Shown here: one piece after another, positions 9,850 to 55,114 of the stretch
Layout: every line of letters starts with the position of its first letter
How positions within the stretch are numbered: the first letter of the stretch is position 1
Assembly: GCA_040752415.1 (NCBI GenBank)
Contig: JBFMGU010000010.1
Span: 16,023-80,022 of the forward strand
Origin: Myxococcota bacterium
GTDB taxonomy: Bacteria; Myxococcota; JACRCW01
Direction of reading: 5' to 3'
Length of the DNA stretch: 64,000 nt
Notes under the pieces: model-generated
What the model was told of the DNA's origin: nothing
What the model saw: the letters and a program-made list of their open reading frames with translations, nothing else
Database searches by the model: none
Position numbers and translations under genes: made by a program

Positions 9850-9860
9850 GAGAACATAGG

Positions 9861-13726: not shown

Positions 13727-13735
13727 GAGGGAAGG

Positions 13736-28855: not shown

Positions 28856-30487
28856 ATGGCTGAGACGGAAGGCAGGCCCGTCAACATCCTCGTCGTGGAC
28901 GACCGACCGGCAAACGTGCGCGCCATCGAAGCCATCCTGGACCAGCCGGACTACCGGATTGTGCCCGCGCTCAGCGGCGAGGAGGCGCTGCGCCAGGTCC
29001 TGCACCAGGACTTTGCGGTGATCCTGCTGGACGTGGCCATGCCCGGGATGGATGGCTTCGAGACGGCGGCGCTCATCAAGCAGCGGGAGGCGTCCCGGGA
29101 GATTCCCATCATCTTCGTCACCGCCACGGTCTACGAGATGGAACAGGTGTTCCACGGCTACACCATGGGCGCGGTGGACTACCTGCTCAAGCCCCTGGAC
29201 CCGCACGCGCTGCGCGCCAAGGTGTCCGTCTTTGTGCAGCTGTTCCGCCAGCGACGCCGGATTGCCGAGCAGGCGGAGCAGCTCCGGGAGGCGGAGCGGC
29301 GCCAGGGGGAGCTGGAGATGATGCGTGTCCGCTTCGAAGCGGAACGACGCTACCGTAACCTGGCCGAAGCGGTACCGCAGATTGTGTGGCGGGCCACGCC
29401 GGATGGCACCTGGGAGTACGTGAACCGTCGCTGGCTGGAGGCCACCGGGCTCGCACCCGGCCAGGCCCTGGGCGAGGGCTGGACCCACGCCTTGCATCCC
29501 GCCGACGTGGACCCGCACCGCTTGAGCTGGCAGGAATCCGTGCGCTCCGGTGCCCCGTTCGAGCGGGAGTCGCGCCTGCGCAGCGCGGAAGGGTCCTACC
29601 GCTGGTACCTGTGTCGCGCGTTGCCGGAGCGGAGCGCGGAGCAGGGGATCACCGGCTGGCTGGGCACCTTCACCGACGTCGACGACCAGAAACGCCGCGC
29701 GGAGGAGCGGGCGGAGCTGCTGGAGCGGGCGGAGGAGGGCGTGCGCACGCGGGACACCTTCCTGGCGGTGGCCGCGCATGAATTGAAGACGCCGCTGACG
29801 CCCCTGCGCCTGGAGACGCAGCTCCTCCGTCGGGCGCTGGAGCAGGGCGTGCGCGAGCAGCTGGTGCCGGAGCGGGTGATGCCGCGCCTGCAGCTGATGG
29901 AGCGGCAGATTGGCCGCCTGGAGCGGCTCACCAATGACCTGCTGGAGGTGGCCCGCGCCACCCGCGGCTACCTGGAGCTGCAGCGCGACACGGTGGACCT
30001 CTCCGCGCTGCTGACCGAGGTGGTGGCGCGTCACCAGCAGGAGGCGGAGCGCGGCGGCACGCCCATGCACGTCAACGTGCAGCCCGGCGTCGTCGGATAC
30101 TGGGATGCCGGCCGGCTGGAGCAGGTGTTCACCAACCTGATCTCCAACGCCATCAAGTACGGGCGCGGCCAACCCATCCTGGTGACGCTGGACGTTGATG
30201 ACGTGCAGGCCCGCATCCGCGTGCAGGACCACGGCATCGGGGTGCCACCGGAGAGCCAGCAGCGCATCTTCGAGCGGTTCGAGCGCGCGGTCTCGTCGGT
30301 GCACTACGGCGGGCTGGGGCTGGGGCTGTGGATCTCACAGAAGATCGTCGAGGCGCATGGCGGCCGCATCGAGCTGGACAGCCAGCCGGGCGCCGGCGCC
30401 ACCTTCACCGTGTTCCTTCCCCGGCGGGTCGTCGAGAAACAGGACGACGCCACGGCGTACCTGTCCCACTCCGCCTCCCCTGCTTGA
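28856..30487 (+). CDS. REC-PAS sensor histidine kinase
   Basis: ILVVDD...LLDVAMPGMDG, PAS/PAC, AHELKTPL, GGLGLGL; GGAGG RBS. Confidence 0.92.
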   Translation: MAETEGRPVNILVVDDRPANVRAIEAILDQPDYRIVPALSGEEALRQVLHQDFAVILLDVAMPGMDGFETAALIKQREASREIPIIFVTATVYEMEQVFHGYTMGAVDYLLKPLDPHALRAKVSVFVQLFRQRRRIAEQAEQLREAERRQGELEMMRVRFEAERRYRNLAEAVPQIVWRATPDGTWEYVNRRWLEATGLAPGQALGEGWTHALHPADVDPHRLSWQESVRSGAPFERESRLRSAEGSYRWYLCRALPERSAEQGITGWLGTFTDVDDQKRRAEERAELLERAEEGVRTRDTFLAVAAHELKTPLTPLRLETQLLRRALEQGVREQLVPERVMPRLQLMERQIGRLERLTNDLLEVARATRGYLELQRDTVDLSALLTEVVARHQQEAERGGTPMHVNVQPGVVGYWDAGRLEQVFTNLISNAIKYGRGQPILVTLDVDDVQARIRVQDHGIGVPPESQQRIFERFERAVSSVHYGGLGLGLWISQKIVEAHGGRIELDSQPGAGATFTVFLPRRVVEKQDDATAYLSHSASPA

Positions 30488-30513
30488 GGCGCATTCCAGA
30501 ACCCGAGGTCGTG

Positions 30514-30897
30514 ATGGTTGGTAGGATCCTCCTGATTGAAGACGACGCTGACATCCGTGAGTCCATGGCGGACGTGCTCCGCCTGGATGGCCACGACGTG
30601 CAATGCGCCGCCGACGGCGCCAGCGCGCTCCAACTCGTCCTGGGGGGGGCCCGCCCCTCGGTGATCCTGTTGGACATGATGATGCCGGGCATGAGCGGTG
30701 CGGAGTTCCTGGAGCAGTGCCACAGCAACGCGCTGCTGGCCGGCATCCCGGTGGTGGTGGTCACCGCGTACTCGCAGGTTCCGCCCATCGCGCGCACCGC
30801 GGACGCCATGTTGAACAAGCCGGTCCACGTTGACGAGCTGCTCACGCTCACCCGCCAGCTCGTGGCCCGCCAGGTGCCGCCGGCCCCGGTGGTGTGA
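30514..30897 (+). CDS. Single-domain response regulator
   Basis: ILLIEDD, ILLDMMMPGMSG, KP motif. Confidence 0.9.
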   Translation: MVGRILLIEDDADIRESMADVLRLDGHDVQCAADGASALQLVLGGARPSVILLDMMMPGMSGAEFLEQCHSNALLAGIPVVVVTAYSQVPPIARTADAMLNKPVHVDELLTLTRQLVARQVPPAPVV

Positions 30898-30913
30898 ACA
30901 CGGAGTAGGCCGG

Positions 30914-31023
30914 GGACCCAACGCCTTCCGGCATCGATGACGGAATCATCGCCCGCCTGGGGCGCTGATCCGAGCGGCGACGAGGCAGTGCTCAACGCTT
31001 TCTGGCAACGAGGACGGAATCGC
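30914..31023 (-). CRISPR. Detached two-repeat remnant of the array (degenerate repeats 30914-30949 and 30988-31023, 38-bp spacer)
   Basis: GGACCCAACGCCTTCCGGCATCGATGACGGAATCAT and GTGCTCAACGCTTTCTGGCAACGAGGACGGAATCGC versus the + strand consensus GTGCTCAACGCCTTCCGGCATCGAGGACGGAATCAC. Confidence 0.9.
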
Positions 31024-31082
31024 TGGCGGCGAAGCGCCTGGAACGCTCTCTCCCCGCGGCCGCTGTGGGCTGATTTGAGACG

Positions 31083-31409
31083 TCAGTTGCCAGCATCAGG
31101 TAGTCCCGCATCTGGCTGGATGGGGAACTTCAGAGAATCGGCGCAGTCCGCGAAATAGAAGCTGCAGTACCAGGAGTGGCCGGCGTCATTCCTTCCCTCG
31201 TAGTAGCAACGGTCGAACTCGCCGCCCTCCGGGTCCGAGGGGCACACGGTTCCGCAGGTCCCGCCGTCTGGTCCGAGCCCACTGCTGAAAGATGCACCGC
31301 GGCCGCAACTGTTTGGGATCTCGTCAGTTGCGGGGTTACCCGGTGGAGGACACCCGACGCACGCGAGCCAGCCCGCAGCGACGAGAATCCTACTGAGCCG
31401 CGTACTCAT
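31083..31409 (-). CDS. Small Cys-rich putative lipoprotein
   Basis: MSTRLSRILVAAGWLACVGC signal/lipobox-like N-terminus; several Cys; DAG motifs. Confidence 0.6.
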   Translation of the reverse strand: MSTRLSRILVAAGWLACVGCPPPGNPATDEIPNSCGRGASFSSGLGPDGGTCGTVCPSDPEGGEFDRCYYEGRNDAGHSWYCSFYFADCADSLKFPIQPDAGLPDAGN

Positions 31410-31905
31410 ACACGCGATTATCACTCTCAGCTGACAACAGTAGATGACCGGCATCAGATCGCCCCACGAGGTAGTTGCGGACTTGGTCGGAGGGACAAGT
31501 GAAGAAGACACTTACCACTCCCGTCTGGAAAGGACTCCACGTTCCCACGGAAACACGATGACGCCCACCATCAGCGTCTTCGAAGGCCAACCGGACGTGG
31601 GACGACGTGATCGTCGCGGTTCCTTTCAACACCTCCGGTTCCGTCCCATCAGGTACAGAGTGTGTCACCACTGAAATGAGTTCATGGAACCCTTCCGGCA
31701 ATTCGGAAACTGTCCCAAGCGATTGTGGACGCGGTGACTGAGTCGTGGTGCCAAAGACAAGGTACGTTCCTTCCAAGTTCTCTTCGCACGCGAGAGGTTG
31801 TGGGCCCGCGTCGCCTTGACCTCCATCGGTACCAGCGTCGGCCTGAGACATCCCGGTGCAGGCCGAGGTCATGAGCAACAGCGCGAGGCCAACGTGTCTT
31901 CTCAT
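31390..31905 (-). CDS. Putative lipoprotein
   Basis: MRRHVGLALLLMTSAC lipobox; DAGTDGGQGDAG linker; ATGA overlap with the upstream gene. Confidence 0.65.
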   Translation of the reverse strand: MRRHVGLALLLMTSACTGMSQADAGTDGGQGDAGPQPLACEENLEGTYLVFGTTTQSPRPQSLGTVSELPEGFHELISVVTHSVPDGTEPEVLKGTATITSSHVRLAFEDADGGRHRVSVGTWSPFQTGVVSVFFTCPSDQVRNYLVGRSDAGHLLLSAESDNRVYEYAAQ

Positions 31906-33599
31906 GGCAAGCACTCCATGGCGCACGATTCCGTCGAGACCCGAGTACTTACCTCAACACGAATGCACCCGTAGCCAAAGGGCGCAACGAAACATCCCTG
32001 GGAGCTGGGACAGTTTGTGGTTGACCCGCACGTAACCGGGGTGACGATCGCCGAGTGCACAGGCCTTACACAGGATCCGTTTTGCATGTAGCAGCCCCTT
32101 ACCTCGGGGCACTGGTTTGTGCATGGCCACGTTGAGCACCGCCCGTTTGAGCAGGCAAGACCAACCGTGCAATGTTCATCACGGGAACACGTCGAACCAA
32201 GTGGCCTCTTCAAGCGGCATGCAGGCCCGCCAGTGAGGTCCTTTCCGCAGAACGTTTCGGATCCGCAGTCATTGTCGGTCACACAGGGATCGAACTCGTA
32301 CCCCTTTGTGAGCCGCGACATCAGGACGACCTCGTCGTTCTCCGCCAACTGAGCCATAAACGCTCGGTCCTCAGGCACACAGACCAAGTTCGGAACCTCC
32401 CGAGTGAGGTCACCGCTCTCCGGGTGCGTTCCCCACCAAAGCCTGTGCGTGAACGGATCGACAATGTACGTCTGCCGCTCGAACTCCCAGGTATCCAGCG
32501 GAATCGACTGAGGCATGGACCAGAAGCGAGGATCCACCGGGCGACGAAGCTCGAAATGGACATGGGGAGCGGATGACGGGCCAGCGCTCCCAATTCGCGC
32601 AAGGGGTTGCCCGCACTTCACTTCCTCGTTCAGCTTGACCACAGGGCTGTTCTTCATGTTGTGAACGTAGCGAGAGACCGTTCCATCGGAATGCTTGATA
32701 CTGAGGATGTTCGAGGCATTGCCGCCGCCGGGACACACGCTCGGTCCTGCGGAGCCGTGACAGCGGTCCTCATTGCCGTCAACCAATTCCACGACGACCC
32801 CGCCCGCCGCCGCCAGCAGCTCGATTCCACCGAGCTCCATCATGCGAAAGCCCGGCCTTCCAGAGCCGAAATCGATCGCATTGTGGTTGTCCATCGCAGG
32901 GCCCGCAGAGCCCTTGATGACGCCACGTTTCCAATCAACGTCGACTCTGTTGCCAGCTTCAATCCATCGGGTGAGATAGTAGGGTGCGCTGAGTCTCACC
33001 GTCGGGCCCGGGTCGACAGAGGAATCGAAGTCGTCGAGGAACCAATCGCGCGAAAAACCTGCCTGAAGGGCCCCGCGGGCTTCCTCGTGTACCATGACGC
33101 TCGCAGTCGCCGTCGTCGAGTTCACAAGGGAAAACCTGTTTGTGTAACTCGAAAACGCGACTGACGCATCGCGCATTTCAGAAAACGAGACGAAGCGAAC
33201 GCGATCTCCTCGCCTCACTGTTCCGGGCCCCGCGGTCCGCTCCAAGAGCCATATTGAATTGCTGTAGTCATAGACCGACTCGGCACTGGCGGGACCCTGA
33301 TGGATGTGGTTGGTCGTCAAGAACCGCCCTTGGTCTGCTGTGGTGCCGATGGCTGCATAGAATGTCACCAAGTCGCCGTGTTCGAGCGCACCTCCGTTGA
33401 GATCGAGGAGGATGAGGTTTCCGTTGCCCGCAGTCTGGACCGTGCTGAACGTGTTTAGGTTGAGCGGATTGACCGTTAGTGAGCGGCGCCAGAATGTCGT
33501 GTCCCGGATAGCCACGCTGTACGTCCTCTGGAAGGCGTGTGCCATATCCGAGAATGCCAGGCACTGGACCAACGTCGCGACGAAAAGGAAGAACTTCAT
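31902..33599 (-). CDS. Secreted M23 family metallopeptidase with a Cys-rich C-terminal region
   Basis: Signal peptide MKFFLFVATL...AHA; M23 motifs HNAIDF, RYVH, GPSSAPHVHFE; many paired Cys at the C-terminus. Confidence 0.85.
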   Translation of the reverse strand: MKFFLFVATLVQCLAFSDMAHAFQRTYSVAIRDTTFWRRSLTVNPLNLNTFSTVQTAGNGNLILLDLNGGALEHGDLVTFYAAIGTTADQGRFLTTNHIHQGPASAESVYDYSNSIWLLERTAGPGTVRRGDRVRFVSFSEMRDASVAFSSYTNRFSLVNSTTATASVMVHEEARGALQAGFSRDWFLDDFDSSVDPGPTVRLSAPYYLTRWIEAGNRVDVDWKRGVIKGSAGPAMDNHNAIDFGSGRPGFRMMELGGIELLAAAGGVVVELVDGNEDRCHGSAGPSVCPGGGNASNILSIKHSDGTVSRYVHNMKNSPVVKLNEEVKCGQPLARIGSAGPSSAPHVHFELRRPVDPRFWSMPQSIPLDTWEFERQTYIVDPFTHRLWWGTHPESGDLTREVPNLVCVPEDRAFMAQLAENDEVVLMSRLTKGYEFDPCVTDNDCGSETFCGKDLTGGPACRLKRPLGSTCSRDEHCTVGLACSNGRCSTWPCTNQCPEVRGCYMQNGSCVRPVHSAIVTPVTCGSTTNCPSSQGCFVAPFGYGCIRVEVSTRVSTESCAMECLP

Positions 33600-33787
33600 G
33601 CGGGCGCCACAGGACATAGGTGCTCTCCTTTGAGGCGATGCCCTACCAGTGCTGTGGGTTGTGGTCAAGCTTCGACCGAAGCCCGAAGCTGCGCGCGCCC
33701 TGCGCAGGGCACGATGCGCGTCATTCGTTCCTAATAGTCAAGTAGGCGAAACGATTTCCAGGAGACCTCGGGCAAAGAGGTGATGCG

Positions 33788-36700
33788 GTGGTGCGCCGCC
33801 TCCGGCATCGAGGACGCGATCACCACTGGCCTTGCCCAGCGTCGGCCCAACCGTGCCACTGCTCAACGCCTCCCGGCATCGTGGACGGAATCACCTGGGC
33901 CAACCTGCCCACGCGCACGGATGTCTCCGAAGTGCTCAGCGCCTTCCGGCATCAAGGACAAATCACCCGCACCGATCGCACCGGCAAGATGCTGGAGGCG
34001 CTGCAGCGCCTTCCCGCATCGAGGAAGGATCACGCAGTTCCGGGAACTGTTTGGACCCAACGCCTGGTGCTCAACGCCTTCGGGCATCGAGGACGGAATC
34101 ACCGCACGCTGGCCTCCAGCTCTCCCACGCGCTGCTGGTGCTCAACGCCTTCCGGCATCGCGGACGGAATCACAACCCCGCGATGCGCACGCCCGTCGGA
34201 CCTCACCGGTGCTCAACGCCTTCCGGCATCGAGGACGGAATCACCTCGGCAATGCGACGGTCAAGTTCGCCAACGCGACCGGGTGCTCAACGCCTTCCGG
34301 CATCGAGGACGGAATCACCCTTGCCACCGGCAACACCGGCGGCGTCGAGGCGCTGTGCTCAACGCCTTCCGGCATCGAGGACGGAATCACACGCCGGCCA
34401 GCGCTTCTCGAGGCCAGCGTTGGCGTGCTCAACGCCTTCCGGCATCGAGGACGGAATCACGCGTGGCGGGGACGATGGCGGCCAGCGCCGTCACCACGTG
34501 TGCTCAACGCCTTCCGGCATCGAGGACGGAATCACGCTGCCATTGCCCAGGGTCAGCAACAGGAGCACGAGGTGCTCAACGCCTTCCGGCATCGAGGACG
34601 GAATCACCCGGTACTCACCGGGCCTGCGCTGGATGTCGTGAGGTGCTCAACGCCTTCCGGCATCGAGGACGGAATCACCCGGGGGCCGCGGTGGTGATGG
34701 CATCGCAGTGGCGTGCTCAACGCCTTCCGGCATCGAGGACGGAATCACGAGGCGACCGCCTTCGAGCGCGGGGACGTGCTCCGGTGCTCAACGCCTTCCG
34801 GCATCGAGGACGGAATCACTCAACGACGCTGCCGACGCGTTCAAGACGGTGTCCCGTGAGTGCTCAACGCCTTCCGGCATCGAGGACGGAATCACCTCAT
34901 GGTTCGCGCGGACCTGACAACGGCCTGGTAGTGCTCAACGCCTTCCGGCATCGAGGACGGAATCACTTTTCGGGGTGGTTTCACGACGACACGCGGTTTC
35001 GTGCTCAACGTCTTCCGGCATCGAGGACGGAATCACGCAACGTTGCTCCGTCGGCGGGCGCCGTCGAGCAGTAAAGTGCTCAACGCCTTCCGGCATCGAG
35101 GACGGAATCACTTCTGGAGGGAGTTTGCTGCGGGGGTCGTCATGGGGTGCTCAACGCCTTCCGGCATCGAGGACGGAATCACACGCGCTCGTGTCGCACC
35201 GGCTCGCGGCCACGGAACACGTGCTCAACGCCTTCCGGCATCGAGGACGGAATCACCGATGACCGCCCCCGTCGCCGTTGCCACCAAGGCGTGCTCAACG
35301 CCTTCCGGCATCGAGGACGGAATCACGTGCCGGCAGGCGACAACGCCGGGGAGAGCAGAATCCTGTGCTCAACGCCTTCCGGCATCGAGGACGGAATCAC
35401 ATGCGAAAGCCTGGCGCGGTGGTGGCGCGCGTCGACGAGTGCTCAACGCCTTCCGGCATCGAGGACGGAATCACGAGCCGGATGCGGACGATGTTCTGCA
35501 GGTGGTTGACGTGCTCAACGCCTTCCGGCATCGAGGACGGAATCACAGACCGCGCCTTCCCACAGCGTGCGTGGCCGCCAGCGGTGCTCAACGCCTTCCG
35601 GCATCGAGGACGGAATCACGCGTGCGCGGCCGCTTCCCCGCGCAAGGCGACGAGTGCTCAACGCCTTCCGGCATCGAGGACGGAATCACACACCGTCGGC
35701 GGGCTGTACTTCCCCAACGAGTACAAGTGCTCAACGCCTTCCGGCATCGAGGACGGAATCACCAATGTACGGATTGAGGCGTCCCGACGTCGGATGCACG
35801 TGCTCAACGCCTTCCGGCATCGAGGACGGAATCACGCCCGCACAAAGCGGGCAGCGCAGGCGCAGGTGCGTTGTGCTCAACGCCTTCCGGCATCGAGGAC
35901 GGAATCACGACGGCGCAGGCGCACGTGTGGTCCCTTTGGCGCGCGTGCTCAACGCCTTCCGGCATCGAGGACGGAATCACCGTGTGCGAATCCGACGACA
36001 AGTGCCCCGGAGGTGTCGGTGCTCAACGCCTTCCGGCATCGAGGACGGAATCACGGACGTACACCGGTCGCCCGGCGGTGCCCTTGTTGGCGATGTGCTC
36101 AACGCCTTCCGGCATCGAGGACGGAATCACCGTTCCAAGCGCCGCCCTCCGCCGCCGGGTAATCCTGTGCTCAACGCCTTCCGGCATCGAGGACGGAATC
36201 ACACAGTGAGCCGCGCCTTCAGGAGGGGCAGGCCCAGGTGCTCAACGCCTTCCGGCATCGAGGACGGAATCACTTCCAGCGGCCACGTCTGCCAATCGAA
36301 GTCCACCGTGTGCTCAACGCCTTCCGGCATCGAGGACGGAATCACTTCCAGCGGCCACGTCTGCCAATCGAAGTCCACCGTGTGCTCAACGCCTTCCGGC
36401 ATCGAGGACGGAATCACTTCCAGCGGCCACGTCTGCCAATCGAAGTCCACCGTGTGCTCAACGCCTTCCGGCATCGAGGACGGAATCACACCAATCGCCG
36501 GCGCCCTGCGGATCCTGACCTCGTTTTGTGCTCAACGCCTTCCGGCATCGAGGACGGAATCACGTCTGAACCCGGGTTGCCTCCTGGTCCAGGTTCAAGT
36601 GCTCAACGCCTTCCGGCATCGAGGACGGAATCACACGCGCTTCAACCTCAGCTTCGCCGACGGCACCGTGTGCTCAACGCCTTCCGGCATCGAGGACGGA

Positions 36701-39700
36701 ATCACACCGCCTCCCCACTCTCGGCCTGCTGCGGATCAAGCAGTGCTCAACGCCTTCCGGCATCGAGGACGGAATCACGTCTGGACCGGCCGCGGGCAAA
36801 GACGGAGCCGAGTCGGTGCTCAACGCCTTCCGGCATCGAGGACGGAATCACGGAGCCTTGCGCCGCATAGCGGACGATGCGAACGCAAGTGCTCAACGCC
36901 TTCCGGCATCGAGGACGGAATCACCGCCCACGACCGCGTTGCTGAAACCCTGTTGTCCAAAGTGCTCAACGCCTTCCGGCATCGAGGACGGAATCACATG
37001 GCCAGGTTGCTGCTCCCCACGACGGGGCACCAGTGCTCAACGCCTTCCGGCATCGAGGACGGAATCACGCGCGCGGCCGTCGTCGGCGGCAACCTGGGCG
37101 GCGGCGGGTGCTCAACGCCCTCCGGCATCGAGGACGGAATCACGGTCGCCCTCTGCTCTGGCGCGCCGCCGCGGAGTGGTGCTCAACGCCTTCCCGCATC
37201 GAGGACGGAATCACCGGGGAAATGTACCGCCCCGTCCACAGCTCCTGAACCATCACGTGCTCAACGCCTTCCGGCATCGAGGACGGAATCACCCAGTGCG
37301 CCCGCCCCGGCGCTGGCCAACGTCAACGTGTGCTCAACGCCTTCCGGCATCGAGGACGGAATCACGCGGATGGAGGGACTGAGCCGTGGCGACCCCGTCC
37401 CGTGCTCATCGCCTTCCGGCATCGAGGACGGAATCACTCCGGTTGCTGGCGCGTCGACCCGAGCAGCAACAAGGTGTGCTCAACGCCTTCCGGCATCGAG
37501 GACGGAATCACGGTTAGGCGGCGCGAGGCTGGCCGCGGTGCGGAGGCGGGTGCTCAACGCCTTCCGGCATCGAGGACGGAATCACGGCCCGCTCATTTCC
37601 ATCCTGGAGGAGGACAACTTGTGCTCAACGCCTTCCGGCATCGAGGACGGAATCACCGGGGATCGCCACCGCGGGACCGATGGGCATACGTGTGCTCAAC
37701 GCCTTCCGGCATCGAGGACGGAATCACCAAATGTTCAGTCCACCCGTCGTAACACCCATGCTGTGCTCAACGCCTTCCGGCATCGAGGACGGAATCACTG
37801 GCGCTGCTGGTGGTGGCGATGGTGGCCGCGGCGCGTGCTCAACGCCTTCCGGCATCGAGGACGGAATCACCCGCATCGCCATCCGGGACAAGCACAAAGA
37901 GATCGCGTGCTCAACGCCTTCCGGCATCGAGGACGGAATCACCAACCCGGAGTCGTCACCCGTCGTGGTGTCGCCGGGTGCTCAACGCCTTCCGGCATCG
38001 AGGACGGAATCACTTCCCGGTGCCCGACGAGGCCCGGCGCCGCTTCGGGCCCATGTGCTCAACGCCTTCCGGCATCGAGGACGGAATCACGCGCGTGCTG
38101 CTGGTCTGGGACCCTCAGCGGAAGTGGTGCTCAACGCCTTCCGGCATCGAGGACGGAATCACCACCGGCAGCAGCTTCCCGACGGGGTCCATTGTCTGGT
38201 GCTCAACGCCTTCCGGCATCGAGGACGGAATCACGCAACAGAGTGGTGCCACGGTGGTATGCGGCGTGTCCGTGCTCAACGCCTTCCGGCATCGAGGACG
38301 GAATCACCCGCCGCCGCCGAAGGCGGTTATCTTGAACAGGGGCGTGCTCAACGCCTTCCGGCATCGAGGACGGAATCACTCACCGCGTCCGGGCGCGGAG
38401 TTCACTGGCCGCCGCCTCGTGCTCAACGCCTTCCGTCATCGAGGACGGAATCACACGGCGCGTGGGTGGGTGGGGTCTGACGGAGCCACGTGCTCAACGC
38501 CTTCCGGCATCGAGGACGGAATCACACGCCGAAGCGCGCCAGAAGTGGAACGACCAACTGGTGCTCAACGCCTTCCGGCATCGAGGACGGAATCACACGC
38601 AACATACACATATAAGTAAACCGCACCTTAGGTGCTCAACGCCTTCCGGCATCGAGGACGGAATCACCACCTACGTGGACAGCGCCGGCAAGCCCTTCGC
38701 CGCGTGCTCAACGCCTTCCGGCATCGAGGACGGAATCACTGGTGCCGCTGATTGCCCTGTTGGGCGTCGTCAACGGCGTGGGGTGCCCAACGCCTTCCGG
38801 CATCGAGGACGGAATCACGCACCGGCCCTTGTGGCGTTGCGCTGGCCCAGTTCTGGTGCTCAACGCCTTCCGGCATCGAGGACGGAATCACCAATGACGG
38901 TGACGGTGCGTCCCGTGGAGAACTGAAGTGCTCAACGCCTTCCGGCATCGAGGACGGAATCACTCACAACAGCACCGGGACAGAGAGGAATAGCGCTGAT
39001 GGGTGCTCAACGCCTTCCGGCATCGAGGACGGAATCACGCTGTGGCGGTTGGGCAGTGGGCGGGCTGTCTTCCAGTGCTCAACGCCTTCCGGCATCGAGG
39101 ACGGAATCACCCGTGACGACGGCCAGCCTCATCTTGGTGGCCAGCTGTGCTCAACGCCTTCCGGCATCGAGGACGGAATCACCAGGCTTTCGCCTTGTCG
39201 AGCCAGAACTTCGGGTCGGTGTGCTCAACGCCTTCCGGCATCGAGGACGGAATCACACCAGCGGCCAGATCAAGGTGCTGTGGGAGCACGGTGTGCTCAA
39301 CGCCTTCCGGCATCGAGGACGGAATCACTGAAATGGATGGACCAGGTGCGGCCGCGCGTCGTGTGCTCAACGCCTTCCGGCATCGAGGACGGAATCACTC
39401 ACCAACGTTCCCGACGGCGGCGGGAGTGCGCAGCACAGGTGCTCAACGCCTTCCGGCATCGAGGACGGAATCACCGGGATCAGTCGGCGGGCTCCGAGGT
39501 TCACAGCACCCGGGTGCTCAACGCCTTCCGGCATCGAGGACGGAATCACAAGTAGCGGGCGGACTTGCTGAACAGGAACACGTACTGTGCTCAACGCCTT
39601 CCGGCATCGAGGACGGAATCACACGATGTTGCGAATCCACTCAGGACGGAGCGTGCGCGGTGCTCAACGCCTTCCGGCATCGAGGACGGAATCACTGGTC

Positions 39701-42700
39701 ACCAGGGCGTCGACCACCATGTTCATCGTGCTGTGCTCAACGCCTTCCGGCATCGAGGACGGAATCACCCTTGGGGGACTCCCCTATCGAGCCGGTGGGG
39801 GCGAGTGCTCAACGCCTTCCGGCATCGAGGACGGAATCACCAGGCGCCTCATTACCTGCTGGTCGCCACGCTCCTTGTGTGCTCAACGCCTTCCGGCATC
39901 GAGGACGGAATCACGACGAGAAGTTGCGCGCGTTCTGTAAAACGCTCGGGTGCTCAACGCCTTCCGGCATCGAGGACGGAATCACGCGCGGGGGCCGTAG
40001 AAGGTGGCTGTCGTCGTGATGTGCTCAACGCCTTCCGGCATCGAGGACGGAATCACGCAACGATCCGCAAACCACAGGTGCGCACGCTGGCGCGTGCTCA
40101 ACGCCTTCCGGCATCGAGGACGGAATCACCAGTCAGCGGCGGTCACTCACCCCGCCTCGCCCGCGTGCTCAACGCCTTCCGGCATCGAGGACGGAATCAC
40201 TGGAGATCGGCCTCTTGGCGCTTCAACTGCTCGATGTGCTCAACGCCTTCCGGCATCGAGGACGGAATCACTCACGAGACACCGACGGCGCACGGCGTGT
40301 CCACCACCGCGTGCTCAACGCCTTCCGGCATCGAGGACGGAATCACCCATCACGCCAGTGGAGGATGTGGACGCGGCGCGCGTGTGCTCAACGCCTTCCG
40401 GCATCGAGGACGGAATCACGGTTGGCGGCCGGCGAGTGAGGCGCAGCGGATCCCAGGTGCTCAACGCCTTCCGGCATCGAGGACGGAATCACCGCCAATC
40501 GCGACCGCGAGCACCAGCAGCGAAGCAAGGTGCTCAACGCCTTCCGGCATCGAGGACGGAATCACGCCGCGTTGGCGCGCCCATGCACCGAGGCACCGCA
40601 GCGTGCTCAACGCCTTCCGGCATCGAGGACGGAATCACGTCTTGCCGGACGCTTTGGCGAGCGCATAGCCGTCGTGTGGTGCTCAACGCCTTCCGGCATC
40701 GAGGACGGAATCACGTCATGCCCAGGCGCTTGGCACTGAGAATGATCTCGTGCTCAACGCCTTCCGGCATCGAGGACGGAATCACCGGGCGGTACTGTTT
40801 GCGGTTGACGTTGCCGCCCTGTGCTCAACGCCTTCCGGCATCGAGGACGGAATCACTGGAGACACCAGCGAGACACGCACACGCCCGCCGTTCAGTGCTC
40901 AACGCCTTCCGGCATCGAGGACGGAATCACCCCACGGAGCTACACTCCCCAACACGGATGGTTCACGTGCTCAACGCCTTCCGGCATCGAGGACGGAATC
41001 ACTCATTGGAATTCATGACGTCCTCACGCCGGCTCAAAGTGCTCAACGCCTTCCGGCATCGAGGACGGAATCACATGGATGGGCAAGGGTGGCGCCTTGG
41101 AGCAGGTGGAGTGCTCAACGCCTTCCGGCATCGAGGACGGAATCACTCAAGGCCGGCGTCGCGTTCAATGCCGTCGGGCTTCGCAAGTGCTCAACGCCTT
41201 CCGGCATCGAGGACGGAATCACACGCCGCCACGCTGCCCGAGCCGCCCCCGTAGAGCGGTGCTCAACGCCTTCCGGCATCGAGGACGGAATCACGACGCT
41301 GAGCCTGTACATCAACGGCATCCTGGTCTGTGCTCAACGCCTTCCGGCATCGAGGACGGAATCACTCAGCGGCCAGCCGCTTTCACAGCAGCCCGAGCGC
41401 GTGCGGTGCTCAACGCCTTCCGGCATCGAGGACGGAATCACGCATCCTCATGTCGCTCAACGCGTTCGATGCGAACGACTACGCGTGCTCAACGCCTTCC
41501 GGCATCGAGGACGGAATCACATACCTGGGACTGAAGCCGGTGATCCGCAACGAGGAGTGCTCAACGCCTTCCGGCATCGAGGACGGAATCACATGCACGC
41601 CAGCGAGCGGGACAGCATCTACTTCGAAGCGTGCTCAACGCCTTCCGGCATCGAGGACGGAATCACCGGCTGCATCCGCGGCTACCTGGGCTGTGCCGGC
41701 TTCCCGTGCTCAACGCCTTCCGGCATCGAGGACGGAATCACTGACGTGCTGAAGGATCTGGTGAATGGGCGCGGCCAGCCGTGCTCAACGCCTTCCGGCA
41801 TCGAGGACGGAATCACAAGCTGGACCCCTGGGCGGACGTCAAGGGCGCGGACGAGTGCTCAACGCCTTCCGGCATCGAGGACGGAATCACACGGTCCCCT
41901 GCGGCCCGCCGGATGACCGGAGCGCGTGTGCTCAACGCCTTCCGGCATCGAGGACGGAATCACAGCAGCAGGGACCCCACAACGGCCCCCAGGGCCATCA
42001 GGTGCTCAACGCCTTCCGGCATCGAGGACGGAATCACTCGTCGGCGCTGCAACCGAGGCGCAGCGCCAGCGCGTCGAGGTGCTCAACGCCTTCCGGCATC
42101 GAGGACGGAATCACACGGGCCAGACCATCTACAGCGGCGTTGCCACCGAGTGCTCAACGCCTTCCGGCATCGAGGACGGAATCACGCGGAGGTCTTCGAC
42201 AAGTATGTTGATGGCGACCGGTGCTCAACGCCTTCCGGCATCGAGGACGGAATCACACTGGCCTTCAGCTCCTCCAGCTTCCTGCCGTAGAGTGCTCAAC
42301 GCCTTCCGGCATCGAGGACGGAATCACCCTAACGTCGGCCGACACCACGGTGCAGGTGCCGCAGTTGTGCTCAACGCCTTCCGGCATCGAGGACGGAATC
42401 ACATCACCCACGCCGGGACCTGTACGCCGTGCCACTGATAGTGCTCAACGCCTTCCGGCATCGAGGACGGAATCACGGGATTGCGCCGAGGCGAAAATGA
42501 ACCTGCTGCGCGTGTGCTCAACGCCTTCCGGCATCGAGGACGGAATCACGGTGGAGCTCGGGCTCGCCGCGCCGTCGGGGAACCTGTGCTCAACGCCTTC
42601 CGGCATCGAGGACGGAATCACCAGGCGTCAGGCGGGGTCGGCGTAGCCGTGCGGTGGTGCTCAACGCCTTCCGGCATCGAGGACGGAATCACCAGGCGGA

Positions 42701-45390
42701 CAACCAGCACCCCAGACGACGCCCTCCCTGGTGCTCAACGCCTTCCGGCATCGAGGACGGAATCACATCGCGGTGGTATCCCAGCGCCCCGGAGGTCCCA
42801 CCGTGCTCAACGCCTTCCGGCATCGAGGACGGAATCACCGTCACGCCGCGTTGGCTCAGAGGAGGGCCAGCGCCCAGTGCTCAACGCCTTCCGGCATCGA
42901 GGACGGAATCACACAAACCGCCCATCTCCAGACGCCCGACAGTCGTTGCCCTGTGCTCAACGCCTTCCGGCATCGAGGACGGAATCACGGTACGGATCGT
43001 GGAGCGGGAGAATCCGCGACCGACGAGTGCTCAACGCCTTCCGGCATCGAGGACGGAATCACGGCGTAGCCGCGAACGTCGCCCATGACGGCGGCGACGT
43101 GCTCAACGCCTTCCGGCATCGAGGACGGAATCACGCCGTCCACGTACCGATCAGCCCCGCCCTGGGTAACGTGCTCAACGCCTTCCGGCATCGAGGACGG
43201 AATCACTCCAGCGAACAACGCGTCTCGTGTCAGCCATCGTCGTGTGCTCAACGCCTTCCGGCATCGAGGACGGAATCACGGCCGAGCTCCGCAACGAGAT
43301 GCGCTTCCGCGTTTGACCGTGCTCAACGCCTTCCGGCATCGAGGACGGAATCACTGGGCGGCGCGTGGACCGTGACGTCGCACGAGGACCTGCGTGCTCA
43401 ACGCCTTCCGGCATCGAGGACGGAATCACACACCGCCCCTGGGCGCGCGTTATCTATGCAAGCCGGTGCTCAACGCCTTCCGGCATCGAGGACGGAATCA
43501 CTTCGTGGGCGTTTTGGGGCTGCGTGCTCGTGCTCGTGCTGTGCTCAACGCCTTCCGGCATCGAGGACGGAATCACAGACGGCGCCCTCCCCTCTGCCTC
43601 TGCGTGCTCTGTCGTGCTCAACGCCTTCCGGCATCGAGGACGGAATCACGGGAGGCCAAGAGCGGCATGCTGGCGCGCCTGGCCCAACGGTGCTCAACGC
43701 CTTCCGGCATCGAGGACGGAATCACTGCTGACCGGCGCCAACCACGCGGGGAAGAGCAGGTGCTCAACGCCTTCCGGCATCGAGGACGGAATCACCTTGA
43801 GCGCCAGGTGCGCGTCCGTGTCCACCGGAAACTTGCGTGCTCAACGCCTTCCGGCATCGAGGACGGAATCACACCTGTACGCGCACAAGAAGGTGCCCGC
43901 GGGAGCGTGCTCAACGCCTTCCGGCATCGAGGACGGAATCACGGTGGAGCGCCGGACCGAAGCCTACCGCAGGCGGCTGTGCTCAACGCCTTCCGGCATC
44001 GAGGACGGAATCACCCAGCACCTTGTGGCCCTCGCCAACCTTGGCAACACTAGTGCTCAACGCCTTCCGGCATCGAGGACGGAATCACCAGGCATCCACT
44101 TCAACACTTTTTTCTACCTCCACGTGCTCAACGCCTTCCGGCATCGAGGACGGAATCACCCTTATGAATCTGATGAAGGTTACGGGCCATTAATTTTGTG
44201 CTCAACGCCTTCCGGCATCGAGGACGGAATCACCATTCTTGAATGCAACGATGTTGTTGGTCATCATAGTGTGCTCAACGCCTTCCGGCATCGAGGACGG
44301 AATCACACCGTGTCCGTAGGTCGCCAGCCCTGATCGAATGGGTGCTCAACGCCTTCCGGCATCGAGGACGGAATCACTAGGGATATTAAGGCCGTTACAC
44401 ACCTCTTCTTCTAGTGCTCAACGCCTTCCGGCATCGAGGACGGAATCACCGGGCGGATCGCTGTTCGGCCTGTATCCGTGCTCCTTGTGCTCAACGCCTT
44501 CCGGCATCGAGGACGGAATCACACGGAGACGTGTTGTTTGATAACTGCACCGGCATGAAGTGCTCAACGCCTTCCGGCATCGAGGACGGAATCACGCCAG
44601 CAGAACCAGCCAGAGCGCGCCGGAGAATCTGTGCTCAACGCCTTCCGGCATCGAGGACGGAATCACACGCCAGAGAAACACCCCGATGGACAACACAGGG
44701 ATGTGCTCAACGCCTTCCGGCATCGAGGACGGAATCACGGCTTCGGGCGGCGGAGCCGGCACCGCGGCAAGCAACGGTGCTCAACGCCTTCCGGCATCGA
44801 GGACGGAATCACGCGCCAGACTCTGATATAGTAGCACCGGCTCCAACGGTGCTCAACGCCTTCCGGCATCGAGGACGGAATCACCTGTTGGAGGACTTGG
44901 GCCGGGTTGATCTGGCGGGGTGCTCAACGCCTTCCGGCATCGAGGACGGAATCACCGGTGATGGTGAGCGCACCGCCAGCCTGGCCGTCAGGTGCTCAAC
45001 GCCTTCCGGCATCGAGGACGGAATCACCGGTGGGCAGTGTGCCGCCAGTCGGGATCAGCGCGTCGTGCTCAACGCCTTCCGGCATCGAGGACGGAATCAC
45101 TTCTTGCGACTGCGCTCTCGCACCTCCTCCACCTGCGCGTGCTCAACGCCTTCCGGCATCGAGGACGGAATCACGTGCCTGGCGTGTTTCAGAAGGCGCG
45201 CCTCGTGGTGTGCTCAACGCCTTCCGGCATCGAGGACGGAATCACTCGAGGACTCCGACGGCATTGACCTGCCGCACGGTGGATGTGCTCAACGCCTTCC
45301 GGCATCGAGGACGGAATCACTTCGTACGCCGGTTGATTTCGTATCCGCCTCGGGGTGCTCAACGCCTTCCGGCATCGAGGACGGAATCAC
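33788..45390 (-). CRISPR. CRISPR array of about 160 x 36-bp repeats with spacers of roughly 31-43 bp; leader at the right, degenerate trailer at the left
   Basis: Hand count of ~160 copies of GTGCTCAACGCCTTCCGGCATCGAGGACGGAATCAC. The leftmost six are mutated. The reverse complement ends in ...GTTGAGCAC, as in type I-B2 repeats, so transcription is inferred on the minus strand. Confidence 0.99.
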
Positions 45391-45643
45391 CCCGCCCGCC
45401 CAAGTCTGCGACATGACCGGGAGTTTCCACTTCCCTGACAAGCACCATTCCGCCCGCACCCAGCGGCCGGGTCTGGCATGCGTCCAAACCTCTGCCAGCC
45501 GACCGTGATTCCGTTGTTCTTCCGAGCACCTTCCGCATCCGTCATGCACCTCCTTGGTCCTGCCCACAGGGCAACCTGTTGAAATCCATACCCTATTGCG
45601 TTGCCAAAGCACCCAATCACGACAAACGCGCTGGGGTCCATGA
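45391..45643 (-). promoter_or_regulatory. CRISPR leader
   Basis: Non-coding, lower-GC stretch between cas2 and the non-degenerate end of the array. Confidence 0.8.
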
Positions 45644-45940
45644 TCACGCCAGGATGAACGGCGGCGGGTCCTCATCCAGCCCGGCGAGGTCCTTGCCTCG
45701 CACGGTCACGCGACCGGCGCAACCCTCACACAGCCGGGCGACCATCAGCCGATCCTTTTCCTCGAGGATGCCAGCCAGCTCGAAGCGGAGCTGCTCCAGC
45801 TCCCTGGCGGTGCAGCGCACCCGGAAGACGGAGTACTGCACTGGCTTTCCCCATGCGGTCAGCTTCTTGTGAACTTGTCGCAGCGCCTTGTCGTTGGACA
45901 CGTCGTACATCACCAGGTGCCAGTGTCGCGGTTCCGCCAT
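45644..45940 (-). CDS. cas2: CRISPR-associated Cas2
   Basis: LVMYDVS...WGKPVQYSVF; 98 aa; next to the leader. Confidence 0.96.
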   Translation of the reverse strand: MAEPRHWHLVMYDVSNDKALRQVHKKLTAWGKPVQYSVFRVRCTARELEQLRFELAGILEEKDRLMVARLCEGCAGRVTVRGKDLAGLDEDPPPFILA

Positions 45941-45950
45941 GGTGTCCTCC

Positions 45951-47612
45951 TCATCGGATCCGGAACCGCGCGAACAGCCCCGGCTCTCCCGACCACTCCT
46001 TCTCCAACAGACGTACCTCCAGCTCCATCATGCGCTCGTAGGACAGCGCGTAGCCGATGGCGCTGTGCCGGTATTCCTCCTTCTTGCGTCGCTCATAGAC
46101 GCCAATGAGCTTCTTCCTGCCCTCCTCCGACAACCACACCTGCGGTCCCGTGACCGTGAAATCGGCTGCCGGGTCGAACGTGCGCCGGTTCACCGCCGCC
46201 ATGACCGCCATGTCCACCACCGGCACCCGGAAGAGCTCCATCAGGTCCAGCACCAGCGGCCAGGCCGCCGAGCGGGGCTGGTGCAGCACGCCGAAGGCCG
46301 GCTCCAGGCCCACGCGGAGGACCGCGCTGAAGATGTCGCGTTCCAGCAGCGCGTAGCCGAACGACAACAGCGCATTGAACCGGTCCCGCGGCGGCCGCTG
46401 CGACCTGCCCGCCGGCCGGAGCTCCTCACCCGCCTCCGGGCTCACCAGCACGCTCAGCGCGCCGAAGTACGCACGGGCCGCGAGGCCCTCGTTGCCCATC
46501 AGCGCGTCGCGGTCGGCGGCGCGCGCCAGCCCGGAGAGGCCGGAGCGCATGGTACGCAGGTGTTGATCCACCTGGGGGCGCAGCCCTCCGTCCCCGCGCG
46601 ACGCGCGCAGCACGTGGCGTAGCTGCATCTCCACCTTCGCGTGGAGCAGGCGCCGGGCGAGCGAGAGCGCGCGGTCATCATCCGTCAGTCCGCGGTACTG
46701 CCGGATGCGCCGCTGCACGCCGCCGCTGGGACCGCTGAAGGTCCCCAGCAGGCTCCCCGACATGGTGACCAGGTGGACCGGGATGCGCTCGTCGGCGCAG
46801 AGGCGCAGCGCCTGGGTGGTGATCTGCGCATACCCGTGCAGGGTGATGTCCCCGACCTCCCGCGCACCGACCTTGAGGGGCGTCTCGTCGGGCGCCACCA
46901 CGGTGAAGCCCTCTCCGCTGCGCGAGACCCGTGCCCCCTGGGTCAGCACGTGCAGCGAGCGCCGCTCCGAGTCCGCGGGGAACAGTCGCAGCGGCGTGGG
47001 CGTGGCGGCGTCCTCCGCCTGGGCCAACCGGACCTCCTCCGGCAGGCAGACCGGCGCCAGGGAGCACCGGACGCATTTCCGCTCGTCGGTGGTCACCGGC
47101 GGGCGCTCGGTGAAGCGCGCCAGCTCACGCGCGCGGCGGACCGCGAGGGCCACCTCGGTGCGGAGCACGTCGGTGATTGGGATGCGCACGGTGACGTTGT
47201 CGCGGTGGTAGCGGATGCGCGCCTCGGCCACCGGGCGACCCAGGTGCTCCTCCAGCAGCATGGCGTAGGCGGCGGCTTGCACGCGGTCGGCGTCCCAGGC
47301 GCCGGGCCCTCCGTCGGTGCGTCGGGCGCGGCCGCGCTTGTGCTCGACCGGGAAGACGGTCCCGTCGCGCTTGCGCAGCGCGTCCACCTTCCCGCGCATG
47401 CCCAGCCGGGCGGACTCCAGCGTTAGCTCGACGACCTCCGCGGGCTCGTCCAGCTCCGCGTGCAGCACGCGACCGGCCCAGACCGCCTCGTCGGCAACGC
47501 GGATCTCCTCGACCTCCTCCAGGAAGAACAGGCGCTCGCAGTAGAGCAGGGCGTGCAGCGCCATGACGCGCACAGTGGGGAGGCGCGCGTCTTCCAGGGC
47601 TTCCAGGGTCAT
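45951..47612 (-). CDS. cas1: Cas4-Cas1 fusion (Myxan type)
   Basis: N-terminal Cas4 (YCERL, KVD, VEHKRG, CVRCSLAPVC) followed by Cas1 (EGLAARAYF, RPPRDRFNALLSFGY, GVLH, LDLMELFR). Confidence 0.96.
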   Translation of the reverse strand: MTLEALEDARLPTVRVMALHALLYCERLFFLEEVEEIRVADEAVWAGRVLHAELDEPAEVVELTLESARLGMRGKVDALRKRDGTVFPVEHKRGRARRTDGGPGAWDADRVQAAAYAMLLEEHLGRPVAEARIRYHRDNVTVRIPITDVLRTEVALAVRRARELARFTERPPVTTDERKCVRCSLAPVCLPEEVRLAQAEDAATPTPLRLFPADSERRSLHVLTQGARVSRSGEGFTVVAPDETPLKVGAREVGDITLHGYAQITTQALRLCADERIPVHLVTMSGSLLGTFSGPSGGVQRRIRQYRGLTDDDRALSLARRLLHAKVEMQLRHVLRASRGDGGLRPQVDQHLRTMRSGLSGLARAADRDALMGNEGLAARAYFGALSVLVSPEAGEELRPAGRSQRPPRDRFNALLSFGYALLERDIFSAVLRVGLEPAFGVLHQPRSAAWPLVLDLMELFRVPVVDMAVMAAVNRRTFDPAADFTVTGPQVWLSEEGRKKLIGVYERRKKEEYRHSAIGYALSYERMMELEVRLLEKEWSGEPGLFARFRIR

Positions 47613-47648: not shown

Positions 47649-48608
47649 TCAGCCTGTGTGAGACGGCGCCCGGTACGGAGACAGCGCAGTCTCCAGCTCC
47701 GCCCGCACCTGCTCACGGAAGAACGCGGGCTCCAGCGCCTCCGCGTTGCGGCCCCAGCGCAGGACCCAGTGCAGTGCCTCCATGGTGCCGGCCACGTGCG
47801 CCCGGACCACGACGGCACCGTCGGGCTGCGGAGCCAGGGTCTGGGTGTCGCTGAGGGGCCACTCGTGGATCAGTGGTGCCACCTGCGCGCGAATCCGCAC
47901 CGCCACCTCCACGGTGTCGCCCGACCAGATGCCCATGCTGTTGGCGAAGATCCGTTGCGGGTCGTAGTCGGGGCGCTGCGCGGCGGGCTCATCCAGGATC
48001 TCCGGCTGCTCGGCGCGGGCGGGCTTGAAGACGCGCCAGTCGTTCCGCTGCGTGTCGAAAGCCACCAGGTAGAGCTGATCCTCATGCAGGCGAAGCTCCT
48101 GCGGGTCAACCACGCGGCGCTCCGGGCTCCCGCCGGGCTTCCGGTACAGGAACGCGAGGCGGCGACGCTGGGCCACCGCGGTCTCCATGGCGCGGATGAC
48201 ATCCCCGGGAACCTGCGGGTGCGCGCTGGGCGCCAGCGTCACGGGCAACTCGGCCACGCGCGGCGGAGCCATGGCTGCCAGCAGGCCGTCGAGCTCGCGC
48301 AGGATCTCCGTGCCCTCCAGCGGCGTCATGACCTGGCGCAACATCAGGATCGCGGCCACCTGCATCGGCGTCGGGCGAAGCGGCGGTAAGCTCCATTCCA
48401 GCAGGTAGCGGGTCTCACCGTTCACCGTCTCGGTCCGGATGGGCACGCCCGCTTCCTCCAGGGTCTCGAGGTCGCGGTAGACGGTGGCGCGACTGGCGTT
48501 GCACCGCTCCACCAGCTGCTCCACGCGCAAGCCACGTTTCACGCCCTGAAGAGCGAGGACGTGGCCGAGCTGTCGGGTGAGCATCTCCTTGTTCTTCCAG
48601 CGGGCCAT
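47649..48608 (-). CDS. HTH-WYL-WCX transcriptional regulator
   Basis: HTH SRATVYRDLETL, YRKP...RVVDP, LYLVAFD..RNDWRVFKPAR, WVLRWG...LEP. Confidence 0.93.
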   Translation of the reverse strand: MARWKNKEMLTRQLGHVLALQGVKRGLRVEQLVERCNASRATVYRDLETLEEAGVPIRTETVNGETRYLLEWSLPPLRPTPMQVAAILMLRQVMTPLEGTEILRELDGLLAAMAPPRVAELPVTLAPSAHPQVPGDVIRAMETAVAQRRRLAFLYRKPGGSPERRVVDPQELRLHEDQLYLVAFDTQRNDWRVFKPARAEQPEILDEPAAQRPDYDPQRIFANSMGIWSGDTVEVAVRIRAQVAPLIHEWPLSDTQTLAPQPDGAVVVRAHVAGTMEALHWVLRWGRNAEALEPAFFREQVRAELETALSPYRAPSHTG

Positions 48609-50326: not shown

Positions 50327-50396
50327 TTTGGGTTGTCGCAGAAGAGCTGAGACGGCGACGGCGCACCGTGCGCCGCGCCGCAAGAAGGAGCTTGGA

Positions 50397-55104: not shown

Positions 55105-55114
55105 GGAAACCACC

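Follow-up and report, generated by a model that had tools for sequence, protein, structure and literature searches.

A low-GC operon with a putative secreted M23 peptidase gene between degenerate repeats at the trailer end of a type I-MYXAN CRISPR array

The DNA analysed here is a 64,000-nt stretch of the genome of a Myxococcota bacterium (GCA_040752415.1, contig JBFMGU010000010.1, positions 16,023 to 80,022), hereafter the window. It carries a single, very large CRISPR array with its cas genes and, just past the degenerate trailer of the array, a cassette of three genes that sets two further repeats apart from the rest. The array is of type I-MYXAN (I-B-like) and comprises 160 repeats at 33788-45390. 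Its 36-nt repeat occurred in 157 copies with at most three mismatches, as against 0 in 100 shuffles, and was absent from all other contigs of the same genome (520 contigs, 11.0 Mb). Perfect or near-perfect repeats make up the main body (34209-45390, minus strand), which continues at its low-coordinate end into a degenerate trailer of six repeats with 1 to 13 mismatches (33788-34173, minus strand): one mismatch in each of the units at 34138 and 34067, 13 with an indel at 33999, eight with an indel at 33932, three at 33859, and nine in the lowest unit, 33788-33823. Counting the degenerate units and the two separate repeats, repeats start at 162 positions, and the spacers (31-43 nt) number 160.

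The two separate repeats, which we refer to as the stub, had been described in the original prediction as degenerate and normally spaced (30914-31023), and they are real. Repeat A (30914-30949, minus strand) has five mismatches, with an alteration at the end that would give the 5′ handle of the CRISPR RNA (crRNA), and repeat B (30988-31023, minus strand) has four, with the consensus hairpin weakened to -6.4 kcal/mol. Their identities to the consensus, 31/36 and 32/36, respectively, compare with a chance expectation of 0, and each has private changes. The repeats start 74 nt apart on the same strand as the array, and the 38-nt spacer between them (30950-30987, minus strand) falls within the size range of the array's spacers. 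Our repeat scan also bore out the 2764-bp separation from the trailer: the next repeat-like unit is the one at 33788, and the gap of 2,764 bp (31024-33787) occupies interval 160/161 counting from the leader. At the position expected for the next repeat (approximately 31061-31096) no remnant was seen by eye, and none was found at up to 13 mismatches. On the other side of the stub lies a response-regulator gene of host-like composition (30328-30897, plus strand), convergent with the array and the cassette, whose stop codon is 16 nt from repeat A.

Four observations together indicate that the array is transcribed from the minus strand and that its old end is at 33788. A leader of 253 nt (45391-45643, minus strand) lies between the stop codon of cas2 (45644-45940, minus strand) and the first repeat; the order cas2, leader, array on one strand recurs in the one same-family genome, whose sequence can also be aligned with that of the window at the end of cas2 and the start of the leader (score 36; the shuffles did not exceed 28). 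Degeneracy of the main array lies at its low-coordinate end, opposite the leader, and Rfam CRISPR-DR33 matches fall on the minus strand, these being weak and under the gathering score. Two of the trailer repeats, at 33932 and 33999, have in common an A-to-G change at repeat position 8, and each has one state as in the variant of the same-family genome (L013) and not as in the modern consensus; these states could be due to chance or to an older form of the repeat.

The gap holds three overlapping minus-strand genes, g1, g2 and g3 in order of transcription, in the same orientation as the array. The stop codon of g1 and the start of g2 overlap in ATGA at 31902-31905, and the end of g2 overlaps the start of g3 by 20 nt, so that the earlier description of three coupled genes co-oriented with the array is confirmed by the overlaps read in the sequence and by the strand deduced from cas2 and the leader. 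Upstream of g1 there is a 170-nt region (33618-33787), and between repeat B and the stop codon of g3 a junction of 59 nt (31024-31082). The first gene (31902-33617, minus strand) is preceded by an AGGAGA ribosome-binding site 7 nt before its ATG. It encodes a secreted protein of 571 amino acids, which begins with MSCGARMKFF and consists of a signal peptide, an N-terminal domain, an M23 peptidase domain and a cysteine-rich tail; the signal ends in AHA-FQ, without a standard lipobox. The upstream region is GC-poor except for a GC-rich patch, which holds a perfect palindrome of 14 nt, GCCCTGCGCAGGGC (33697-33710); it is situated 80 nt upstream of g1 and may be an operator or a hairpin.

The peptidase domain of g1 was recognised by Pfam (PF01551, 48.9 bits against a cut-off of 28.7, E 7.7e-13). 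In the tail, Dickkopf_N scored 38 bits against 25, and DUF7107, at 24.4 against 24.6, stayed just under its cut-off; the N-terminal region had no family match. The translation contains HNAID (HxxxD) and HVH (HxH), which we take to be the zinc ligand motifs of active M23 enzymes; the inactive DipM has QLH where g1 has HVH in the alignment. Among solved structures, the nearest relatives, for the catalytic core only, are DipM, EnvC, LytM and zoocin A. The model of the N-terminal domain resembles beta-trefoil or lectin-like folds with template-modelling (TM) scores of 0.51-0.60, which at a predicted local distance difference test (pLDDT) value of 0.50 for the model serves as a lead only. Among 5.8 billion protein clusters, 15 of the 16 matches of g1 cover 11-29% of the query, in the M23 domain only, and the sixteenth is the window's own protein. 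Judging by its domains and motifs, g1 is probably an active, secreted M23 peptidoglycan endopeptidase.

The other two proteins are near-orphans. The second gene (31390-31905, minus strand) encodes a lipoprotein-like protein of 171 amino acids with a signal ending in LMTSAC, and the third (31083-31409, minus strand) a cysteine-rich protein of 108 amino acids (eight cysteines) with a lipoprotein-type signal peptide. Neither had a match among the 5.8 billion clusters. When 1.84 billion representatives were searched in full with HMMER, g2 had four weak matches. One of them is a remote full-length homologue, P0019, a colinear lipoprotein-like protein of 168 amino acids that has cysteines and motifs in common with g2 (E 3.4e-4 in the library search and 3e-9 in the pairwise comparison); this argues modestly for g2 as a genuine gene. 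No homologue of g3 was found, the best atlas lead (0.84) being below the threshold of 0.9. PADLOC matched none of the three proteins, and the AlphaFold models of g2 and g3 were poor (mean pLDDT 41 and 39, respectively). The products of g2 and g3 may protect the producer or assist the g1 enzyme.

The insert had been described as visibly less GC-rich than its flanks, and the computed GC and GC3 (GC at third codon positions) bear this out. GC content is 59.7% in the cassette and averages 68.9% over the genome, of whose 9,852 segments of equal size (2,764 bp) only 0.2% are as low; GC3 is 0.70 in g1, 0.59 in g2 and 0.70 in g3, compared with 0.81-0.92 in eight neighbouring genes. The drop extends from about 31070 to about 33770, so that host-like sequence abuts both flanking repeats, including the first part of the 59-nt junction. 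DNA beyond the stub is again host-like in composition. In a DNA search, the cassette was absent from all 40 other genomes compared, in which only the kinase/regulator part of the query and the repeats were matched; the same-family genome shares the repeat family and lacks the cassette. The g2 alignment had no match in a scan of genome contigs, and a phylum-wide g2 profile search gave a match at the level of the signal peptide only, in one of 400 other genomes. The low GC and GC3, the absence from the 40 genomes and the near-orphan proteins all argue for a foreign origin, and horizontal acquisition of the cassette is well supported by these sequence comparisons.

How the cassette came to lie where it does was approached through its junctions. 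Transposase or integrase domains were not detected in g1-g3 by Pfam, NCBIfam or PADLOC, as the original prediction had stated. The ends of an insertion sequence (IS) or a target-site duplication, which it had named as marks of an ordinary insertion, were sought at the junctions and not found: the repeats reported for 30850-33900 include no repeat halves, inverted ends or target duplication. There is also no tRNA gene at the site and no relevant Rfam match. The stub had no leader of its own beside it (score 18 against a shuffle mean of 18.7), and its spacer was unlike the other 159 spacers (best score 15; shuffles had a mean of 12.9 and a maximum of 17), so that the stub is not a recent duplicate; the idea that it is a copy of an existing array unit was rejected on the spacer comparison.

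The stub resembles the stranded old end of the same array, and insertion into the trailer is therefore the simplest reading of the locus. With moderate confidence we lean towards a foreign secreted-peptidase operon that lodged in the dead end of the array and has no functional tie to CRISPR-Cas, the cassette most likely being a neutral insertion scar. A horizontally acquired 2.7-kb operon would have landed in the second-oldest spacer slot of the decaying trailer, either inserting into the slot or replacing a few old units, and the last two repeats would thereby have been stranded. Given that neither a mobility signature nor a leader or an array copy of the stub was found, we favour illegitimate recombination without a dedicated mobility enzyme as the most likely event. 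That the insertion persisted could be due to its position, since nowhere else in the array but at the trailer end would no useful spacers be lost. Ribosome-binding sites come with the cassette, and probably a promoter as well. As for the direction of the event, the arrangement favours insertion over a later birth of the stub.

The claim that foreign DNA had entered the old end of the array thus holds for its foreign origin, and both of the mechanisms proposed with it lack support. Spacer acquisition takes place at the leader end of an array. Capture of the cassette as an oversized spacer is therefore unlikely, given an insert of 2,764 bp (approximately 70 times the size of the 31-43-nt spacers) in the second-oldest slot, interval 160/161 from the leader. 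Repeat-mediated recombination would draw support from repeat halves, duplications or inverted ends, which the junctions lack; it is possible that recombination through a repeat on the incoming element leaves no distinguishing mark here.

We surveyed arrays of the same repeat family, found by the exact 22-nt core of the repeat in one genome per species; 80 of 88 stretches were analysed, and each locus was rescanned with its own consensus at up to eight mismatches. Nine arrays with the trailer side cut by a contig end and 21 records with fewer than five repeats were set aside. This left 32 arrays with at least approximately 3 kb beyond the trailer, among them one Pyxidicoccus array of which three repeats are visible before the contig ends on the leader side. 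No further repeat followed in 28 of the 32. In the other four, a solitary repeat lies 2.1-2.5 kb past the last repeat, with genes between, and the search of other genomes for repeat-flanked gene cassettes that had been suggested for this locus thus yielded four of 32 arrays. In Sorangium sp. So ce1000 (L115) the gap is 2,450 bp, the distal repeat has 0 mismatches and the cargo belongs to no recognised family. Corallococcus terminator (L149) has a gap of 2,489 bp, a distal repeat with three mismatches, and a cargo of a SitA5_escort match (E 6e-21, below the curated cut-off) and a HEAT-like protein. The gap of Myxococcus sp. RHSTA-1-4 (L152) measures 2,422 bp, with two mismatches in the distal repeat, and encodes a Tox-PAAR-like protein and a SMI1/KNR4 (SUKH) protein; two units upstream, a DDE_5 insertion sequence lies between perfect repeats of this array. 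Finally, Pyxidicoccus sp. 3LFB2 (L123) has a gap of 2,093 bp and a distal repeat with 0 mismatches, and its DUF6310 lipoprotein and DUF5953 protein are encoded on the strand opposite to the array. A lipoprotein-type signal is present in one or more proteins of each analogue, two of the four carry polymorphic toxin-immunity pairs, and in three (the exception being Corallococcus) GC is 3-6 points below that of the next 3 kb. Accessory DNA is also found in trailer flanks without a distal repeat: L177 and L191 have Tox-PAAR-like toxin genes, L186 encodes an RHS protein, and L129, L145 and L190 contain transposases or IS elements. That trailer flanks of this family often hold such DNA speaks for an insertion in the window.

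Relatives of the analogues gave information on the stability of these arrangements. In So ce56, the cassette of So ce1000 directly follows the array at 90-98% identity, and the distal repeat and the following 1,337 bp are missing; in both strains, the So ce1000 'cassette' opens with a further degenerate repeat. A relative of C. terminator has the cassette at 94% identity, starting at the same base after the last repeat, with no shared spacers; the distal repeat is absent from the approximately 1.5 kb seen. Two arrays of RHSTA-1-4, on two contigs (L152 and L177), have a common 2.4-kb Tox-PAAR-like and SUKH cassette (93.75% identity), which in both starts at the first base after the last repeat, and their spacers differ. 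The conserved start of the cassettes indicates that the sharp upstream boundary of the analogues is simply array-flanking sequence that has been conserved, and that the labile part is the distal repeat. Labile distal repeats would be expected of scars or of a secondary birth of repeats, unlike a conserved functional element; they support neutrality, yet they keep alive the alternative that the stub came after the genes. As a separate observation, the perfect solitary repeat of So ce1000 is followed by 1,337 bp with an open reading frame (ORF) of 347 amino acids of no known family (12493-13866 of L115), and colinear So ce56 has about 29 nt in place of the repeat and these 1,337 bp; the difference looks like a repeat-bearing insertion or a deletion just past the array.

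Several observations weigh against a neutral insertion into the trailer. Four of the five cassettes, the window's and the four analogues, are co-oriented with their array, which is not a prediction of a purely neutral model. The relatives of So ce1000 and C. terminator keep the cassette beside the array while the distal repeat varies, and after the L177 copy of the cassette, as we read the sequence, a repeat is present in its first half only; as the relatives of the analogues keep the cassette and not the distal repeat, stranded repeats may postdate the genes. The stub repeats, with four to five mismatches, are no more decayed than those of the proximal trailer, which have up to 13, so that the order of ages is not clear. 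Moreover, an empty site was not seen, as there was no close relative among the 40 genomes or among 80 metagenome loci. The same-family genome has no orthologues of the flanking kinases (the best matches have 46% and 38% identity over part of each), and the metagenome scan, made with the flanking hybrid kinase and with 80 loci kept, reached 44% over most of the query at best, or up to 61% identity in the best segment with much weaker E-values.

The alternative that these observations serve best, which we still judge unlikely, is that the genes came first and that the two distal repeats arose later, for example when terminal units were duplicated or re-inserted or when a second array recombined with this one. 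It would account for So ce56, which has the So ce1000 cassette without the distal repeat and its 1,337 bp, and for the relative of C. terminator, whose cassette is accompanied by neither a distal repeat in the part seen nor shared spacers; duplication of terminal units has also been proposed, in a study of standalone repeats, for the birth of mini-arrays (10.1101/2023.03.03.530964). However, the stub spacer matches none of the 159 others, and both stub repeats are old, with four to five private changes. The cassette is also a compositional outlier between the array and the host-like DNA beyond the stub, as insertion into the trailer would have it.

According to the original prediction, read-through from the array promoter could express the cassette and Cas6 cuts at the flanking repeats could release its mRNA. 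The cassette and the array are co-oriented, as are four of five such cassettes with theirs, and a cas6/Cmx6 gene is present (50328-51026, plus strand). In simple scans, nothing terminator-like turned up on the minus strand from the repeat at 33788 to g1 or past g3, nor did 30700-34300 contain a sigma-70-like promoter, so that read-through from the array into the cassette is possible; the promoter scan, though, sees the sigma-70 consensus only. Against this route, 160 repeats and 11.6 kb separate the leader from the cassette downstream, and the Pyxidicoccus analogue is antisense to its array. In predicted folds, the consensus repeat reaches -14.7 kcal/mol (z -2.5), whereas repeat B stays at -6.4 (z -0.1), the unit at 33788, with its nine mismatches, adopts a different pairing, and repeat A has an altered 3′ end. 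With the consensus hairpin lost from both repeats next to the cassette, processing by Cas6 at these sites is made somewhat less likely, and we consider expression and release by this route quite unlikely.

It is very unlikely, in our estimate, that the stub is a regulatory mini-array whose crRNA-like RNA guides Cascade to repress the neighbouring cassette or a cas promoter, in the manner of the Cascade-repressed toxin-antitoxin system (CreTA) or of crRNA-like RNAs (crlRNAs). The arrangement recalls one, with two degenerate repeat-like units and one spacer near a type I cas locus and cargo before the array. According to the mini-array paper (10.1101/2023.03.03.530964), I-B, I-E and I-F1 loci commonly contain mini-arrays whose cargo is a toxin-antitoxin system and whose distal repeat is degenerate. 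As that text presents them, standalone repeats and mini-arrays resemble the stub in having two repeat units and one spacer outside the array with a degenerate distal repeat, at a type I locus with non-cas cargo between the mini-array and the rest of the locus; unlike them, the window has its cargo beyond the trailer and not between mini-array and cas genes, and the cargo is a secreted-peptidase operon, not a toxin-antitoxin pair, without a seed match of the spacer to a promoter. Likewise, CreTA (type I-B) has degenerate repeats around a spacer beside a potentially harmful gene, but CreT is there a small RNA toxin between cas genes with a promoter matched by the CreA spacer (10.1101/2023.03.03.530964, same text), and no such match exists here.

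The seed search for the stub spacer covered the 64-kb window without a criterion for the protospacer adjacent motif (PAM). No seed match of at least 9/10 was found in the six regions considered, which comprised the upstream region of g1, the junctions, the cas intergenic regions and the leader. Over the whole window, the spacer had 19 non-self matches when up to two mismatches in 12 nt were allowed; shuffles predict 16, so the number is at chance level. The one in the cassette falls within the coding sequence of g1. The absence of a promoter seed match within the window, the PAM of the system aside, lowers the standing of a regulatory mini-array and leaves it unsupported. Repeat B, moreover, does not have the consensus fold, repeat A does not have the end that would give the crRNA 5′ handle, and the distal repeats are not conserved in relatives of the analogue loci.

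A broader idea starts from the survey. Including the window, five arrays have genes and then a distal repeat 2.1-2.8 kb past the array end; all five cassettes encode at least one lipoprotein-type protein, and two of the five are recognisable toxin-immunity pairs. The trailer-end repeats of I-MYXAN arrays might then capture small toxin or lytic-enzyme cassettes, by repeat homology or in a Cas1-dependent manner, the stranded distal repeat marking the far limit of the captured DNA, and the array would act like an integron, its leader-driven transcript and Cas6 sites expressing and releasing the cargo, or the cargo making the array costly to lose. We regard this as very doubtful. An assembly artefact is extremely improbable: although the metagenome-derived assembly has 520 contigs and 4.3% estimated contamination and the composition of the cassette differs, a chimera would need two joins, both in unique sequence and not in perfect repeats, the variants of the repeat that make up the stub do not recur elsewhere in the genome, and both flanks have the same array type and host composition.

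Kilobase-sized DNA between the repeats of an array, and tolerated by it, has been described before. Array-targeting Tn7-like transposons (PMC11837452) and the transposases that interrupt CRISPR loci in Clostridium novyi (PMC8473940) are similar to the window in this respect; in PMC11837452, the Tn7-like family is reported as mostly cargo-free. Unlike these mobile elements, the cassette of the window has no transposase, inverted ends or target duplication. In gene content it resembles the SitAI toxin-immunity cassettes of myxobacteria, which are described as small operons of two or three coupled genes with lipoprotein signals, often moved horizontally (PMC8546572, PMC5562445). It differs from them in that g1 has no SitA escort domain (there was no NCBIfam SitA match in g1-g3) and no standard lipobox, and in that its enzyme is a cell-wall peptidase and not a nuclease. 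CRISPR was not mentioned in either of the two SitAI sources, and in the open-access literature searched we found no description of non-transposon gene cassettes between trailer repeats.

What is new and most useful here is that cargo followed by a stranded repeat recurs at trailers within this repeat family, the cargo often being of the toxin-immunity kind. Found in Sorangium, Corallococcus, Myxococcus and Pyxidicoccus, this recurrence links two fast-evolving conflict systems in one hot spot, and the loci provide a concrete set for asking whether stranded repeats serve regulation or RNA processing. If the cassette is indeed a neutral insertion, the dead end of an array would be a safe landing place for foreign genes, and some caution would be due in array-finding software and in spacer chronology, since the oldest units can lie kilobases past the apparent end.

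The remaining cas genes lie beyond cas2. They comprise a cas4-cas1 fusion (45951-47612, minus strand) and the type I-MYXAN effector genes cas6/Cmx6, cas3, Cmx8 (Cas8b-like), cas7 and cas5 (50328-56736, plus strand); NCBIfam assigns type I-MYXAN to the cas genes, and Pfam detects Cas8b domains. Between cas4-cas1 and the effector genes there is a gene for a WYL/WCX/helix-turn-helix (HTH) regulator (47649-48608), and in the same-family genome a WYL/WCX/HTH regulator is encoded just beyond the array trailer (7684-8958 of L159). Within the array, a repeat-spacer unit is triplicated in tandem at 36274-36453, with one 36-nt spacer starting at 36274, 36346 and 36418. Its similarity to g1, 17/20, is at chance level by our estimate, and the comparison of all spacers with the cassette and the genome gave short matches only, none of them full-length. 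The left half of the window contains a chemosensory cluster (7376-14782) encoding CheR, a methyl-accepting chemotaxis protein, a CheA-CheW-receiver hybrid and CheB, together with many hybrid histidine kinases. In an Acidobacteriota metagenome-assembled genome (L153), two repeat-like units 1,150 bp apart, with 0 and eight mismatches (6037-7150), enclose an ORF of 337 amino acids with a partial PADLOC match to DrmA of DISARM (E 6.9e-11).

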